Shown here piece by piece: positions 13,495-35,869 of a stretch of DNA of 35,869 nucleotides. The notes under the pieces are model-generated. The model saw nothing but the letters and a program-made list of their open reading frames with translations. It searched no databases and was not told the origin of the DNA. Within the stretch, counting starts at the first letter, position 1. Every line of letters starts with the position of its first letter. The translations under genes and the position numbers were made by a program. Source of the stretch: Deltaproteobacteria bacterium (lineage in GTDB: Bacteria; SAR324; NAC60-12); NCBI GenBank assembly GCA_011522845.1, contig WTIF01000164.1, positions 1 to 35,869 on the forward strand. Direction: 5' to 3'.

Positions 13495-13561
13495 TTGATT
13501 ATCCAGACGATCTTTTGGTCGTCTTCCCCCTTTGTCAAGAATGCCGGTTCAAGGAGGCCAA

Positions 13562-16500
13562 ATGCTGCTGTGCCAACGAGCCTTTATCGTGCTCTGTGCC
13601 AGTTATTTGCTGACCCATAGTTGGGCAATTGCACAAGAAAATGAGCAAAGTGAAAAAGCTCTGTCAGAGACCCAGAATGCATTACAGCAGGTTGAGGATG
13701 CGCTTCAGCGTACTGAATCCACAGTACAGGAGGCAGAAACCCAGGCTGCATCTGTACAGTCTGAACTACCAGACACTGCAGCCACTGAAGAGGCCACCAT
13801 TGATCCTGTTGAACTGGCTCGTGATTGGAAAAAAATCTTTGATCAGGCGATGCAGGAATATGAATTTGGAGAACTGGAAAACAGCCTGAACAAGGCTCTA
13901 CAAGCTCGTGAGTTAGCAGATCAACACTTCGGACTGCGAGATGAGCGAACCCTTCGGGCGTATTTACTCCAGGCACTGCTGTATGGAGAACTTGGAGAGC
14001 TGGAAATTGCCAATGAACTCTACCAGGAAACTCTGGTCATCGCCATGGAGCAGCAGGGAACCAACTCCAACATCGTGTTGCAGATTCTTGATCAGTACGG
14101 TGGATTCTTTGCCGAGTTGGGTGAATACGAAATGGCCGATGTCGTTTATGAAAAAGCCTATCTTTTATCTACTGAAGCCTTGGGAGCACAGGATCCCCGA
14201 ACCACTCTGCGCTTACAAACCTTGGCAAACAATGATGCGGAATTGCAGCGCTATGAACTGGCAGAGCAGCGCTTACAGGATGCTCAAGCAACCCTTGTGA
14301 CAGCAGTTGGGGCAGAAGCGTTACCCACAATCAATGTCTTGGAAGACCTAGCGCAGCTCTATCAGCGCCAAGGCAAATTACGTCCTGCTCTAGAACCACT
14401 GGAGCAGAGTTATGCCCTACGCACAAAGGTTCAGGGACCGGAGGAGACACAGACGCTGGAAACCAAGGAACGATTGGCAGAGTTGTATCGACAGTTGGGA
14501 CGTCTCGACGAAGCCGAGCCAATGTTCCTGGAAGTGATCGCAACAGCAGAGCAACTGCTTGGAATTGCAGATCCACTAGTCATCGACGCAAAAAGTCATC
14601 TTGCTCAACTCTACGAAAATACGAATAACTTTGTTGCATCCCTTCGCTATTACCAAGAAGTCTACGAAATCGACCAACAAATTCTTGGTGATGCCCATCC
14701 AAACACAGCAGGTGATCTGAACAATCTGGCTGGCATTTACCGTCGACTTGGCCAGTTGCAGCAATCTGAAGCCACCTATCGGCAGGCACTGCAAGCAATG
14801 AGCGCTGCACTTGGTGAAGGCGCACCTCAGACCATCTCTATCATGAACAACTTGGCTCTTGTTCTAGAAAGCCAAGGACTCTATGACGAAGCAGAACCAC
14901 TCTACCAGAAAGCACTAGCCCTTTCCCAAGTGGAGCAAGGTACAGAGCACCCAACCTCACTGGCGCTCAACAACAACATTGCCATGCTCTATGAAGCACA
15001 GGGAGACTTCAGCCGAGCGGAGCGGACCTATCAGCAAGTCATTGAGCTCAACAAGAAGGTCTTCGGTCCAACTCATCCAAATACGGTTGCCAGCATTAAC
15101 AACTTGGCCTACCTCTACCTGATTGACCAAAAACCAGAACAAGCAGAAACCAATTTTCTCGAAGCTTACGAAATCTGGAAGGAACTCTACGGAGAAAAGC
15201 ACCAGGACACACTCAAGGCGCTTAACAATAGTGGCCGAGTTCAAACACAACTTGGCGAACTGGACCAAGCAGAAGAAACTCTGATTCGCGCCCTTGAACT
15301 GCGTACTGAACTATTCGGAGGGCAGGAACATGAAGATGTGCTACGCAGTATGAATGATCTCGCCTTGCTCTACGCTGAACAAGGTCGTGAAGACGAGGCT
15401 TTGGAACTTTTCCAGGAAACACTTGAGCTACAAGGCCAAGTCCTTGGAGAATTGCATCCTTACACCTTCGAAACTTTGAATAATCTGGCCAATCTCCAAC
15501 AGGAGATGGGAGACCTGGATGATGCCTATGAAACACGGCAGCTGGGCTATCAGCGACGTAACGAATTTCTGAACCGAATCCTCTGGGTAGCTGGTGACAA
15601 TACTCGTCAGTCCTATATCAATCTCTATCGTCCTGAGTTAGATGCTTACATTCGGTTGCTGATTGAATTAGATGACGAACGCACTGCTCGAGATATTTTT
15701 GATATCAGCCTCCGGCGCAAGGGACTGCTACTGAAGATTACCAGTGAAACTCAGCAGGTAGTTCAGATGGCAGACTCTCCCGAGTTGCAAGTTATCACGG
15801 AAGAGTTAACCGCTGCCCGCAAGGAGTTGGCTGCCTTGACACTCTCTGGTCCTACTCCGGAAACTCGTAACAACTTTCCTCAGTTGATCAACGATCTCGA
15901 AAATAAGGTCAACAGCCTTCAACTACGTCTAGGAGAAGCGAGCGCTGTCTTTCGGCAGGCAATTCAGCAGGTCAGTGTTGAAGATGTGCTTGATGCTGTC
16001 GGTGAGGAACACGCACTGGCTGATTTTTTCGCCTATCGTGATGAAAATGATGAGTGGTCACTCTGTGTCATCATCCTGAATGATGGTGAACTCTATTTCT
16101 ACAATTACGAGGAAATGGAGCCATTCAAAGACATGATCATGGAGTTGCGTGACTACATGATGGACGTCACTGTCATTGAGGATGATATCAAACCGATTGC
16201 CCAGGAACTCTATGAACCCCTCTGGGATCCAATCACTGAATTCCTGGAAGACAAAGATTCGATCTTCCTGATCCCGGACAGCGTGCTGAATGTGTTGCCC
16301 TTTGACGCATTGGTTGATTTTGAGGACCAGTATCTGATTGAGACCCTGAATCTGCGGTTAATCAGTTCTGCTCGAGATTTGGTCATCGATCCGCTGGAAC
16401 CTGCTGAGGGCGATGTGCTCATCATTGCGGGCCCAGACTATGATTCCGATGAGATCAGCAACTCTCCAGAAGCTCGTATGGTTGCTTCCAGTAAGCGCTC

Positions 16501-17236
16501 GGCAACAGTAAACTCTGGCATTCGCATGGGTAACGGTCTGCGCGGACTAAACTTCAGTCCTCTTCCTGGAGCTGAGAAGGAAGGTGAAGTGATTGAAGAA
16601 GTTGTGGGCGACAAGGAGCGTAGTACAACCTTTGTCACTCGGGCTGCCGCTGAAGAGAAAGAGTTACGTAGTTACAATGCTGAGAAGGTTCCTGAAATTC
16701 TTCATATTGCGACTCATGGTTTTTTTCTGAAAGAACAGGAACGTCTGGCCAAGCGCATCATGGGCATGCAGCGTGGTAGTCAAAATCCAATCCCACCTCC
16801 AGCAGATAACCCCTTGTTACGCGCTGGCTTGGCCTTCGCCGGTTTGAATCCGAATGCTCCGCTGTTGGGTGAAATCGATACGGACAATGACGGAGTTTTG
16901 ACTGCGATGGAGGTACTCAGCCTAAACTTGACTGGTACTCGACTTGTCATTCTATCCGCTTGTGAGACGGGCCTCGGTGAGATTCATGAAGGTGAAGGGG
17001 TCTATGGTCTACGCCGCTCCTTTCAGGAAGCTGGTGTCGACTCCGTAATCAATTCCTTTTGGGAAGTCTCTGACGATGGTACTCAGCTTCTGATGACCAA
17101 GTTCTACGACAAATACCTGGATGGTATTCCCCCACGGGAAGCCATGCGAGAGGCTCGTCTTGAAATGGTCGAGGACTTCCGCTGGAGCAGCCCTTTCTAT
17201 TGGGGTGCTTTCGCCATGGTTGGTCGTCGCGAATAG
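13562..17236 (+). CDS. Exported TPR-repeat / CHAT (caspase-like) domain protein
   Basis: SD AAGGAGG before ATG 13562, signal peptide ending WAIA|QE, a coiled coil, then more than 10 ~42-aa TPR repeats (LNNLA..Y...G...EAEPLY..AL....G..HP.T). CHAT motifs LPFDAL, LPGAEKE, LHIATHG, LSACETG and PFYWGAF. Confidence 0.93.
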   Translation: MLLCQRAFIVLCASYLLTHSWAIAQENEQSEKALSETQNALQQVEDALQRTESTVQEAETQAASVQSELPDTAATEEATIDPVELARDWKKIFDQAMQEYEFGELENSLNKALQARELADQHFGLRDERTLRAYLLQALLYGELGELEIANELYQETLVIAMEQQGTNSNIVLQILDQYGGFFAELGEYEMADVVYEKAYLLSTEALGAQDPRTTLRLQTLANNDAELQRYELAEQRLQDAQATLVTAVGAEALPTINVLEDLAQLYQRQGKLRPALEPLEQSYALRTKVQGPEETQTLETKERLAELYRQLGRLDEAEPMFLEVIATAEQLLGIADPLVIDAKSHLAQLYENTNNFVASLRYYQEVYEIDQQILGDAHPNTAGDLNNLAGIYRRLGQLQQSEATYRQALQAMSAALGEGAPQTISIMNNLALVLESQGLYDEAEPLYQKALALSQVEQGTEHPTSLALNNNIAMLYEAQGDFSRAERTYQQVIELNKKVFGPTHPNTVASINNLAYLYLIDQKPEQAETNFLEAYEIWKELYGEKHQDTLKALNNSGRVQTQLGELDQAEETLIRALELRTELFGGQEHEDVLRSMNDLALLYAEQGREDEALELFQETLELQGQVLGELHPYTFETLNNLANLQQEMGDLDDAYETRQLGYQRRNEFLNRILWVAGDNTRQSYINLYRPELDAYIRLLIELDDERTARDIFDISLRRKGLLLKITSETQQVVQMADSPELQVITEELTAARKELAALTLSGPTPETRNNFPQLINDLENKVNSLQLRLGEASAVFRQAIQQVSVEDVLDAVGEEHALADFFAYRDENDEWSLCVIILNDGELYFYNYEEMEPFKDMIMELRDYMMDVTVIEDDIKPIAQELYEPLWDPITEFLEDKDSIFLIPDSVLNVLPFDALVDFEDQYLIETLNLRLISSARDLVIDPLEPAEGDVLIIAGPDYDSDEISNSPEARMVASSKRSATVNSGIRMGNGLRGLNFSPLPGAEKEGEVIEEVVGDKERSTTFVTRAAAEEKELRSYNAEKVPEILHIATHGFFLKEQERLAKRIMGMQRGSQNPIPPPADNPLLRAGLAFAGLNPNAPLLGEIDTDNDGVLTAMEVLSLNLTGTRLVILSACETGLGEIHEGEGVYGLRRSFQEAGVDSVINSFWEVSDDGTQLLMTKFYDKYLDGIPPREAMREARLEMVEDFRWSSPFYWGAFAMVGRRE

Positions 17237-31988: not shown

Positions 31989-32567
31989 TCAGCTCATGTT
32001 GTCTGTGACAAAGTCCCAGTTCACGAGATTCCAGAAGGCGTCCAGATACTTTGGACGAGCGTTGCGATAGTCAATGTAGTAGGCGTGCTCCCAGACATCA
32101 CAGGTCAGCAATGGTGTGCTTGCTCCGGTCAGAGGAGTTGCTGCGTTGCTGGTGTTCTCCAGCGCCAGCTTGCCATCGGAATTCTGCACCAGCCAGGTCC
32201 ACCCAGAACCGAAGTTGTTGACCGCCGAATTGGTGAACTGCTCTTTGAACGCATCAACAGAACCGAACGAACCCTGCAGGGCTGAGGCTAGTTTGTCATT
32301 GGGCGCTCCACCTCCATTGGGGCTCAGGCAGTTCCAGTAGAAGGTATGATTCCAAACTTGGGCTGCATTATTGAAAACACCACCACTGGACTTACCGACA
32401 ATATCTTCTAGGGACATGTTCTCGAATTCTGTACCCGGAATCAGGCCATTAAGCTTGGTCACATAGGTTTGATGATGCTTGCCATAGTGAAACTCCAGGG
32501 TCTCAGCAGAAATGTGTGGTGCAAGGGCATCCATGGCATAGGGCAGGGCGGGGAGTTGGTGTTCCAT
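31989..32567 (-). CDS. sodB: Superoxide dismutase [Fe]
   Basis: [27 protein letters not shown] (Fe-type AAQ), FGSGWTWL and DVWEHAYY. Confidence 0.96.
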
Positions 32568-34105: not shown

Positions 34106-34556
34106 AGGTCACCACCCCCCAGACAGCAAAGGCATCATCCACCGTCACTTGGATGGATTCATAATTTTCGTTTTCTGGACGCAACTCGATCTGACCTCCA
34201 TCCTGCCAAAGCCGCTTGAGGGTAAATTCTCCATGCAGCGAAGCGATCACAATCCGGCCTTTACGTTGCTCGATTGACCGATCCACTACCAGCAGGTCTC
34301 CATCGAAGATTCCAGCTTGGATCATTGAATCTCCAGCTGCTCGGACAAAGAATGTTGAGGTGGGATGGGGAATCAGGTGCTCATTTAGATCCAAGCGTCC
34401 TTCCAGATGATCTTCTGCCGGTGAAGGAAAACCTGCAGAGACTCCCATACTGAAGATGGGCAGTGAGCGTTCGGCACCAATTTCCAAGCCATGTATTGAA
34501 GCGATGCTACCATCCGTGACCAATGGACGACGGCGTGGAAGAACGGAAATCGACAT
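34086..34556 (-). CDS. umuD: UmuD (S24 autopeptidase)
   Basis: Cleavage site VSAGFPSPAED, catalytic GDSM and FTLKRL. Overlaps the umuC start. Confidence 0.95.
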   Translation of the reverse strand: MSISVLPRRRPLVTDGSIASIHGLEIGAERSLPIFSMGVSAGFPSPAEDHLEGRLDLNEHLIPHPTSTFFVRAAGDSMIQAGIFDGDLLVVDRSIEQRKGRIVIASLHGEFTLKRLWQDGGQIELRPENENYESIQVTVDDAFAVWGVVTYVIHKL

Positions 34557-34775
34557 CGGGGCAACTCCTTCCTGAATCAGGTTTCAAACAAATCCGCACC
34601 TAGCAATGAAAAGAGTTTGCCAGGCAACTGTTATGATCAACTACAATTGTTGAATGCGCCCGTTGATCTAACAAACAAATTCTCATCTCACTCAAAAATC
34701 CTAGAATTTTGTAGAGAGTGCGGTAGGGTTGGGAGAATAATATTTTTGAAAAAAGTCTTCCTCCCCAACAGGTGC

Positions 34776-35159
34776 ATGAGCACAAGTTATCGTTCCAGAA
34801 ACCTTCGTAGTTTGGCTGGAGCACTGGCTGTATTGCTGCTGATCTGGCTCAGTGTGATCCCAGTGCATGTGCAGCACACGAACGGGTTCCGCACACCAAC
34901 AGGTGCTTTTGTCTCCGCAGACCTGGCAGAGCATCTGGACTGTCTGCCCTTCCCATTGACTCCCGTTTCTACGGATACAGAACCTTGCCCCGCCCTACTA
35001 GCTTGGAACTCTGGGAGCGCCACATTTGTTCTACCTCCCATGGCTCCTATCCTAGGGCAGTTTCTGGCCCACATACTTGGTACTCTCCCCTACCAATCTC
35101 CTTTCATTGTCAAAGCCTGGCTGAGTCTAGCTTCCCTGCGGGCTCCACCTCTATTCTGA
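34776..35159 (+). CDS. DUF2946-like exported/membrane leader protein ending in RAPP
   Basis: 127 aa from ATG 34776: N-terminal TM/signal, HVQH, HLDC...EPC, a Pro-rich tail and C-terminal RAPPLF*. Lies upstream of a copper chaperone. Confidence 0.7.
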   Translation: MSTSYRSRNLRSLAGALAVLLLIWLSVIPVHVQHTNGFRTPTGAFVSADLAEHLDCLPFPLTPVSTDTEPCPALLAWNSGSATFVLPPMAPILGQFLAHILGTLPYQSPFIVKAWLSLASLRAPPLF

Positions 35160-35402
35160 TCCATTCTTGCCAAAATTACTGAGCGTCTGTTGTTTTCCTT
35201 GAAACTCTGAAGAACATCGGACGTTTCGAACTACTCTCTGCGTCAATAGCTACCTGTGATTCGATTACCTTGGACCGGTAATCATCTAGGCAGAACGTGG
35301 AGAGAGCGCAATTTGTCTCTACAGTGAGATCGGAGGACTGAGCTTTAGTGCTCTGGCTACATTCAAACTGTGGAGCAACTACTCCTGGAGAAAGAATCAA
35401 CA

Positions 35403-35869
35403 ATGAAACAAATTTCAAAAATATTTGGCTTATTCATCGGTTTGTTGTCCATACTAAGTATTAGTGTTGTGTTCGCACAGTCCATGGCTGAAATGGGAGT
35501 CACCAATGGTTGGATTCGAGCGACACCTCCCAATGCCAAGATGGGGGCTGCCTACCTGACCATGATGAATCATCAGGATCAGGCAGATGCCCTGATTGGG
35601 GCCAGTTCACCTCTGGCTGAAGTGGTGGAAATCCACAACGTCAAGGAAGAGAACGGTATGATGAAGATGTACCCTGTGGATTCCCTTGAAGTTCCAGCAA
35701 AGGGCATGGTGATGCTCAAACCCGGAGGCTATCACATCATGCTGATCAACTTGAAACAGGCACCTAAACTTGGAGAATCACACTCGCTGACTCTCCGGTT
35801 TCGGCAGGCCCCAGACGTAGTCGTAGAGTTGCCTGTACAGCAGAGTGGGGCTACTTCTGGAGATGATGA
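35403..35869 (+). CDS. Periplasmic copper chaperone PCu(A)C (3' truncated by window edge; missing from the ORF track)
   Basis: Manual translation gives MKQISKIFGLFIG...WIRATPPNAKMGAAYLTMMN...VEIHNVKEENGMMKM...LKPGGYHIML, containing the H-x10-M-x21-HxM Cu(I) motif. SD GGAG. Confidence 0.93.
   Translation, partial: MKQISKIFGLFIGLLSILSISVVFAQSMAEMGVTNGWIRATPPNAKMGAAYLTMMNHQDQADALIGASSPLAEVVEIHNVKEENGMMKMYPVDSLEVPAKGMVMLKPGGYHIMLINLKQAPKLGESHSLTLRFRQAPDVVVELPVQQSGATSGDD

Follow-up and report, generated by a model that had tools for sequence, protein, structure and literature searches.

The 3' end of a 35,869-nucleotide (nt) stretch of Deltaproteobacteria DNA (lineage SAR324; contig WTIF01000164.1), analysed here at its full length and referred to as the window, carries a short open reading frame (ORF) of 127 codons and a TGA stop on the forward strand (34776..35159), followed by a gene for a PCu(A)C copper chaperone. 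The ORF, subsequently referred to as the leader, is a real, conserved gene under purifying selection; its motifs, the spacer that separates it from the chaperone gene and the order of the two genes are all conserved. The leader is probably a cis-acting regulator of the RAPP/RGPP arrest type that acts on the PCu(A)C gene behind it, and the reading that fits best makes it a sequence orphan within the known class of copper-related RAPP/RGPP leaders, one that lies outside the Pfam family and has no CxxC motif. The stall itself, export of the nascent chain, metal binding and coupling to PCu(A)C synthesis are predicted from the sequence and from comparison with published systems.

The C-terminal tail of the leader reads F110-IVKA-W115-L-SLA-S120-L-R122-A-P-P125-L-F-stop, in which the RAPP codons (residues 122-125) occupy 35139-35150 of the forward strand. 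A preliminary description of the locus had spoken of a terminal RAPP; the motif is present, but it is near-terminal, with L-F before the stop. It forms the end of a wider arrest-type module, F110-x4-W115-L-x3-S120-L-R122-A-P-P125 (35103..35150, forward strand), defined from an 11-sequence alignment of the leader family in which F110, W115, S120, R122, P124, P125 and F127 are invariant. An R[AG]PP motif within the last 15 residues is found in one of the 312 stop-to-stop ORFs of at least 50 amino acids (aa) in the window. When the search is widened to R[AG][PG]P and to the window plus 11 loci, seven ORFs have the motif in this position, and each lies immediately 5' of a PCuAC gene. The least variable 60 nt of the locus (35127-35186, six variable sites) span the RAPP codons, the stop and the first 27 bases of the spacer.

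RAPP and RGPP are reported as the strongest and most context-tolerant arrest cores, shunned in proteomes and enriched at the C-termini of small secretory or transmembrane (TM) ORFs; the genes described downstream of such ORFs encode TonB receptors, YcnI, the copper chaperone PCu(A)C and PepSY (PMC12992588). In the toeprint of CruR, the copper leader of Bordetella pertussis, the two Pro codons stand in the P and A sites of the ribosome (PMC12992588), and because of this the stall on the window's leader is expected with the P site occupied by Pro124 (35145-35147) and the A site by Pro125 (35148-35150).

Evidence that the ORF is a gene comes from a comparison of the window with four related loci from metagenome-assembled genomes (MAGs; L001-L004, 84-91% protein identity). 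Across these five loci the variable sites of the leader fall 20, 19 and 50 times on codon positions 1, 2 and 3, and the mean ratio of non-synonymous to synonymous substitution rates (dN/dS) is 0.226, against 0.166 for PCuAC. Constraint is strongest over residues 36-80, where His and Cys residues lie (dN/dS 0.11), and remains marked in the tail (0.19), with residues 81-108 at 0.54. The ATG at 34776 is the conserved start, since the stop-to-stop frame in L004 consists of exactly these 127 codons with Met first. A longer version of 180 aa beginning at a TTG (34617) was rejected, as two 1-nt deletions interrupt it in L003 and a stop stands just 5' of the ATG in L004.

The leader belongs to a small family. 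A word-indexed protein search returned 27 relatives, 26 of them at 74-98% identity and one a fragment, all from metagenome or MAG records under the titles Deltaproteobacteria, proteobacterium or bacterium. Searching 1.84 billion representatives with phmmer added one distant relative (P0028; 36% identity, E 1.8e-8), and a profile search with the leader family gave no further relatives beyond the tight clade and P0028. A 604-aa repeat protein (P0029) matched by phmmer in eight stretches was judged spurious, and a tblastn search of plasmids with the leader ORF gave no match. The frame is open in 26 of 27 near-full-length relatives. R[AG]PP stands within the last 10 residues in 26 of the 28 database relatives, which bears out the conservation of the motif in homologues that the preliminary description had proposed to check; the exceptions are the fragment (P0027) and the frameshifted P0024. 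The distant P0028 ends in RGPPSFHF and retains HVQH, both Cys residues, F110, W115 and S120, with Arg in place of H53. In the alignment of 11 sequences, which contains this 36%-identity relative, H31, H34, C56 and C71 are invariant. The expected conservation of His and Cys thus holds for these four residues and fails for H53, which is replaced in P0012 and P0028; because of these replacements the firm candidate ligands are H31, H34, C56 and C71. In P0024, one of the 26 close relatives, which lies on a 170-kb contig, the C-terminus is frameshifted to the +1 frame (…LLPISFHCQSLAES…; the alternative frame corresponds to window positions 34985-35182) and RAPP is lost, so that this sequence could be either a natural loss-of-leader variant or an assembly error.

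The layout of the protein agrees with the preliminary description, which had listed a TM or signal segment, HVQH, HLDC, a second Cys 15 residues on and a Pro-rich linker. An N-terminal signal anchor or TM segment is formed by residues 12-30 (34809..34865, forward strand), with a 19-residue Kyte-Doolittle mean of 2.38 and with R6, R8 and R11 preceding it, as in an N-terminal export signal. No obvious AxA cleavage site follows the hydrophobic segment on inspection. In the AlphaFold2 model a helix over residues 7-27 is the sole confident part (predicted local distance difference test, pLDDT, 72-81; mean over the whole protein 50.9), and the picture is that of an anchor followed by a disordered chain. 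The leader protein is thus near-certainly exported, by prediction. The region after the anchor, a putative periplasmic sensor defined by sequence alignment (34866..34988, forward strand), contains H31-V-Q-H34, H53-L-D-C56 and, 15 residues past C56, C71. It is accompanied by two Pro-rich stretches, LPFPLTPV and LPPMAP, and residues 83-102 are weakly hydrophobic (mean 1.43).

Between the leader and PCuAC lies a conserved, structured spacer of 243 nt (35160..35402, forward strand), with a length of 244-246 nt in the four related loci. The mean Jukes-Cantor distance of the spacer over the five loci is 0.122 against a leader dS of 0.295, so that it changes about 2.4 times more slowly than synonymous sites. 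The RNAalifold consensus of the five loci contains three hairpins (35181-35226, 35234-35304 and 35317-35375, forward strand), with 95.2% of the cells paired, and the spacer has a minimum free energy z-score of -2.2. Compensatory changes are seen at three pairs, all within the middle hairpin, against 1.0±0.7 in shuffled alignments (a count reached in 5 of 500 shuffles). A possible closing helix joins 35153-35163, comprising the last codons, the stop and four further bases, with 35386-35397. The 3' arm of this helix is the purine-rich sequence UGGAGAAAGAAU (35386..35397, forward strand), the putative ribosome-binding region of PCuAC, whose GGAG varies among the five loci. In L002 and L003 the preferred partner of the purine-rich stretch is a UUUUUCUCU segment lying 157-165 nt past the stop, and L001 and L004 differ again. 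The spacer has a G+C content of 45%; the ratio of C to G is 1.5-1.9 over 35100-35237 and below 1 over 35240-35400. An Rfam scan of 34400-35869 gave no family at E<=1, and a consensus scan found no promoter-like or terminator-like site within the spacer. One further pairing, a perfect 9-nt complementarity between the leader at 35102-35110 (UUUCAUUGU) and the start region of PCuAC at 35399-35407 (ACAAUGAAA), reaches a pairing probability of 0.85 in the window. As a conserved feature it was rejected: in L001-L004 the same bases have unpaired probabilities of 0.7-0.98, and the sequence within the leader is variable.

The downstream gene (35403..35869, forward strand, cut by the window end) matches the Pfam PCuAC family (PF04314, E 2.2e-39, profile positions 1-107 of 109), in agreement with the earlier assignment as PCu(A)C. 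The protein begins with a classical signal peptide by inspection (MKQISKIFGLFIGLLSILSISVVFA) and has the arrangement H78-x10-M89-x21-H111-x-M113, corresponding to the H(M)x10Mx21HxM motif that we take to be the copper site of PCu(A)C. The order of leader and PCuAC is syntenic in all five loci, with umuC-umuD on the opposite strand before the leader. The leader is divergent from umuD and is followed by PCuAC after 243-246 nt; it therefore heads a copper-related operon in which the intergenic region is long.

A close published parallel in layout is CruR (Bp2923), in which a stall at RAPP blocks Rho termination and copper, sensed via the CxxC, relieves the stall; downstream expression requires the RAPP (PMC9426467). 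Homologues of cruR are described at the head of operons with PcuAC and Sco among their genes and generally have long intergenic regions; one of them heads the copper-starvation-induced pcu operon for oxidase biogenesis in B. japonicum (PMC9426467). Like cruR, the window's ORF is small, is predicted to be exported and heads a copper-related operon; it has a RAPP 2-3 residues before the stop, in keeping with the position of the motif a few residues from the C-terminus of CruR, and a Cys about 50 residues upstream of it, is poorly structured by prediction and is followed by a long intergenic region (243 nt; 162 nt for CruR as reported). The distance from the last Cys to the Arg of R[AG]PP is 51 residues in the window and 50 in P0028, compared with 49/46 in CruR. 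The differences are that the window's ORF has no match to PF11162 (DUF2946), the family of CruR, and no CxxC, having a single Cys at that place together with HxxC and HxxH; that the downstream gene is PCu(A)C here and a TonB-dependent transporter in CruR; and that the spacer is not G+C-rich.

The leader also falls within the operational definition of CutF-like proteins, which as described asks for a length below 150 aa, a PP among the final 15 residues, a signal at the N-terminus and a gene that follows on the same strand at a distance of up to 1000 nt (PMC9973294): it has 127 aa, PP at 124-125, a TM anchor and PCuAC 243 nt downstream. The 29 clusters reported for such proteins carry sites with Cys, His or both, and among their neighbours OEP comes first, with PCuAC-like chaperones, alongside TonB-like proteins, next in frequency (PMC9973294). 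As in CutF of Rhodobacter capsulatus, a possible helix joins the stop region of the leader to the downstream ribosome-binding region. The two differ in that CutF, from its published description, has PPP, CxxxC and a cleavable signal peptide where the window's leader has RAPP, and in that a short stem-loop directly shields the Shine-Dalgarno sequence of CutF's downstream gene, whereas a 243-nt spacer with three hairpins is present here and the masking helix, predicted in only one of the five loci, lacks robustness. CutF is reported to be exported co-translationally (PMC9973294; bioRxiv 10.1101/2025.02.05.636593), and relief of its stall by force from disulfide formation has been proposed (bioRxiv 10.1101/2025.02.05.636593).

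ApdA, ApdP and the set of arrest peptides from Streptomyces share with the window an R[AG]PP close to the C-terminus of a short protein of TM or secretory type and a gene downstream that shares its strand (PMC12992588, PMC10951233, PMC7897499 as far as described there). They have no sequence similarity to it outside the four-residue core, and arrest of the window's ORF is a prediction. The arrest motif of SecM, F150xxxxWIxxxxGIRAGP166 (PMC10951299), is similar over a longer stretch, with F, W-[IL] five residues on and R-A-x-P, and both are exported leaders. In the window's tail (FxxxxWLxxxSLRAPP), however, W[IL] and R stand one residue closer together, the core is PP where SecM has GP, W is replaced in three members of the family, and the ORF precedes PCuAC and not secA. 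The likeness of the tail to SecM is therefore treated as a resemblance and a lead only. The pattern F-x4-W-[LI]-x3-S-x-R-[AG]-P-P is common to the clade and P0028 and is absent from the Tistrella and Aquibium leaders described below.

Leaders of related layout were found on plasmids. Seven PCuAC regions were inspected out of 322 plasmid records with a PCuAC match, and in two of the seven a RAPP-type leader with CxxC or CxxxC lies directly 5' of PCuAC. The leader of Tistrella mobilis pTM4 (L006:3518-3856) contains CHDC and ends in ARAPPLSES; that of an Aquibium oceanicum plasmid (L007:3391-3858) contains CCxxxC and ends in EARGPPHFSI. Both are annotated as hypothetical proteins, the latter with the UniRef name DUF2946, and their matches to PF11162 (E 1.7 and 0.0055 respectively) lie below the cut-off, so leaders of this type are under-annotated. 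They resemble the window's leader in having an R[AG]PP tail directly upstream of PCu(A)C and in the distance from the last Cys to the Arg (49/46 in Tistrella, 49 in the Aquibium leaders), and differ in their short spacers (54 nt in Tistrella and 67 nt in Aquibium by annotated coordinates). A tblastn search of plasmids with the Tistrella leader returned itself only, and a protein search with the Aquibium leader four proteins only. The order leader, PCuAC, GNAT in Tistrella is that of L001, where a GNAT acetyltransferase gene (PF13523; L001:11174-11650) lies 30 nt 3' of PCuAC. Support for a common leader-PCuAC-GNAT module was nevertheless lacking, as the match between the two GNATs is generic and confined to 46 residues.

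Taken together with the published systems, these features suggest the following mechanism. The N-terminal anchor would direct the nascent leader chain to the Sec translocon, and the ribosome would pause at R122-A-P-P125, two codons 5' of the stop, when Pro124 occupies the P site and Pro125 the A site. With Pro124 so placed, the distance to the peptidyl-transferase centre is 53 residues for C71, 68 for C56 and 71-93 for H53, H34 and H31. During the pause H31, H34, H53 and C56 (68-93 residues from the P site) would already be periplasmic, with C71 at the point where SecY opens to the periplasm, positions that we infer from general tunnel and channel lengths. Copper binding by His and Cys, or a C56-C71 disulfide, may then set the duration of the stall. 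A stalled ribosome would mean that PCu(A)C expression is on, since both characterised systems, CruR and CutF, agree on this point. It may act by covering the C-rich stretch around the stop and blocking the loading of Rho, following the logic of CruR and TnaC, or by holding open the helix between the stop-codon region and the purine-rich region before PCu(A)C, following that of CutF and SecM. The excess of C over G around the leader stop is compatible, weakly, with a site where Rho could load and which a stalled ribosome would cover. In the direction of CruR, copper would shorten the stall and less PCu(A)C would be made at high copper; in that of CutF, copper would lengthen the stall. We lean to the direction of CruR because of the RAPP motif, the long spacer and the copper-starvation-induced B. 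japonicum pcu operon with its cruR homologue.

Several results weigh against assigning this role to the leader. The preliminary description had proposed a hidden Markov model search against DUF2946, and this failed: none of the 21 family members, nor the window's ORF or the relatives P0026 and P0028, matches Pfam DUF2946 (PF11162) or any other relevant Pfam family even at E<=10. A profile-profile alignment by hhalign of the leader family with DUF2946-like PCuAC leaders covers the last 11 columns only, that is the RAPP tail (probability 0.47%, E 0.13; the reference profile consists of five sequences only, themselves under the Pfam cut-off). There is no CxxC in the window's ORF or in its 28 relatives; in its place are HxxC at 53-56 and the single Cys at 71, in the context C-P-A-L. 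The CxxC is called invariant in DUF2946 and its mutation in CruR is reported to abolish copper control (PMC9426467). Fifty residues lie between C71 and R122 (49 in P0028) compared with 45±2 in DUF2946, where a CXXC-RAPP gap of 45 (±1-2) residues is described as kept in >2000 proteins and where the addition of five residues impaired regulation by CruR (PMC9426467). RAPP by itself is reported not to be enough for arrest, a suitable upstream context being needed (PMC12992588), and within the family W115 is S or L in three of the 28 database relatives, while H53 is P in P0012 and R in P0028. The closing helix has no covariation and a high single-sequence probability (~0.8) in one of the five loci, the window, and the bias of C over G is weak as evidence of a rut site. 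Moreover, the family is one tight clade and one distant sequence, so that motif conservation is phylogenetically shallow and, because of this small depth, weaker evidence than the counts suggest. Finally, purifying selection spans the whole protein, as it would for a stable functional protein too.

For these reasons the leader is not assigned to DUF2946, of which by sequence it is no recognisable member; an NCBIfam scan also placed it in no family. A correspondence between C56 and the 'semiconserved Cys' of DUF2946 was rejected, as C51 of CruR is 88 residues before R139 and C56 is 66 before R122. A language-model search of the ESM Atlas provides an independent lead: of the 30 nearest named clusters, 26 are of DUF6769 or DUF2946 type (19 carry DUF6769, several of these auto-named DUF2946, and 7 carry DUF2946). 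Scores are 0.94-0.95 among the matches listed, with low counts of shared features (110-129 of 256).

A different origin may also be considered. The clade may have arisen on its own as a copper or redox leader and have come to resemble DUF2946 by convergence, joining a SecM-like tunnel module to a minimal periplasmic sensor of two Cys residues and HxxH; C56 and C71 would leave SecY as the ribosome reaches RAPP, a C56-C71 disulfide would exert a pull on the chain that releases the stall, and Cu(I) on the thiols and His residues would block this release. We consider such an origin a minority possibility with some chance of being correct. If true, periplasmic copper and the thiol redox state would together govern how much PCu(A)C is made, with no CxxC involved.

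Alternatively, the ORF may encode a stable, membrane-anchored periplasmic His/Cys copper-binding partner of PCu(A)C, either donor or acceptor, in which RAPP would at most slow translation and have no regulatory part. The selection over the full length, strongest at residues 36-80, would suit such a protein, as would the strong TM anchor, the invariance of H31, H34, C56 and C71 and the position beside a copper chaperone gene in five of five loci. This explanation appears unlikely, as the AlphaFold2 model has no folded domain past the anchor and a conserved, structured 243-nt spacer is unexpected between plain operon partners. In addition, RAPP/RGPP, reportedly avoided in ordinary proteins, stands in the same near-terminal place in the 36%-identity relative, and CruR and CutF, which have the same layout, are described as unstable and active in cis only (PMC9973294, PMC9426467).

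The leader might also be an arrest peptide whose signal is not copper, monitoring instead Sec export, membrane insertion or formation of the C56-C71 disulfide, with F-x4-W-[IL] as an independently evolved SecM-like tunnel element. The tail pattern shared by the clade and P0028 points this way, as do the presence of exactly two conserved Cys residues, with no CxxC and no detectable homology to DUF2946, and the proposal in the 2025 preprint that disulfide formation relieves the CutF stall. Against it stand the identity of the downstream gene, a copper chaperone and not a Sec, YidC or Dsb component, the spacing of W to R one residue off that of SecM, and the replacement of W115 by S or L in three members. 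HxxH and HxxC are, furthermore, typical metal ligand sets. Mixtures of His and Cys are also among the sites reported for CutF-like clusters, and a signal other than copper is accordingly judged improbable. That the ORF is untranslated, its conservation being that of an RNA or DNA element such as a long PCuAC 5' untranslated region and its RAPP coincidental, would fit the near equal mean pairwise identities of spacer and leader (0.886 and 0.889) and the lack on inspection of a good Shine-Dalgarno sequence at normal distance from the ATG at 34776, yet is very improbable given the third-position excess (20/19/50) and dN/dS of 0.23, the frame kept open in 26 of 27 near-full-length relatives, the motifs kept at 36% protein identity and an R[AG]PP tail in one of 312 window ORFs.

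An arrest-type leader of copper-related function thus remains the preferred reading, and the conserved architecture that supports it fits the published class, as the preliminary description had proposed in calling it a variant copper arrest leader. That description fares less well in the search against DUF2946 that it proposed and in two of the three differences from known systems that it listed. The absence of a canonical CxxC is real. The PCu(A)C target and the long spacer are not differences, because PCu(A)C is reported downstream of leaders of this kind in PMC9426467, PMC9973294 and PMC12992588 and long intergenic regions in PMC9426467. RAPP/RGPP or CutF-like leaders upstream of PCu(A)C are in this sense already on record in those three sources; a literature search on PCuAC and stalling found, among the papers it covered, no experimental test of a PCu(A)C-linked leader, for which the window locus or the Tistrella plasmid locus offers a simple test case. 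If the reading is correct, the leader would be a natural CxxC-less copper leader and would help to define the minimal sensor as one Cys at about -50 from the arrest site with HxxC and HxxH. It would also mean that current hidden Markov models miss some leaders, so that surveys based on PF11162 undercount them, and that an uncultured marine lineage adjusts the assembly of its cuproenzymes at a step later than the start of transcription.

Upstream of the leader, a consensus scan gave a promoter-like site (34680..34707, forward strand) with a -35 of TTCTCA, a 16-nt spacer and a -10 of TAGAAT. It is a consensus match only, at 9 of 12 positions, and sits within a block nearly invariant across the five loci. 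Overlapping its -10 is an imperfect 16-bp palindrome, AAAATCCTAGAATTTT (14/16 symmetric; window 34695-34710), placed between the divergent umuD and leader genes and unchanged in five of five loci; the SOS regulator that governs umuDC, or a regulator of the leader, could use it as an operator.

The wider neighbourhood is seen in part in L001, where PCuAC is present at full length (L001:10631-11143, 170 aa) and ends in a His-rich C-terminal tail (…SSMHHHQSHKSQ). Oxidative-stress genes are close by: about 4 kb 3' of this gene, at L001:14635-17390, are a Fur-family regulator and then a 733-aa ORF that by eye resembles the catalase-peroxidase KatG. In the window itself an Fe/Mn superoxide dismutase gene is located upstream of umuDC (31989-32567). 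Beside the Tistrella and Aquibium leaders it was noted that P0031 also has an internal RAPP, at about residues 134-137, which its relatives retain only in part: P0033 has RGPP there, and in P0034 and P0035 it is lost. Elsewhere in the window, and unrelated to the leader, 13532-17236 encodes a protein of 1234 aa that contains many TPR repeats and, at its C-terminus, a CHAT protease domain (PF12770, E 1e-69).

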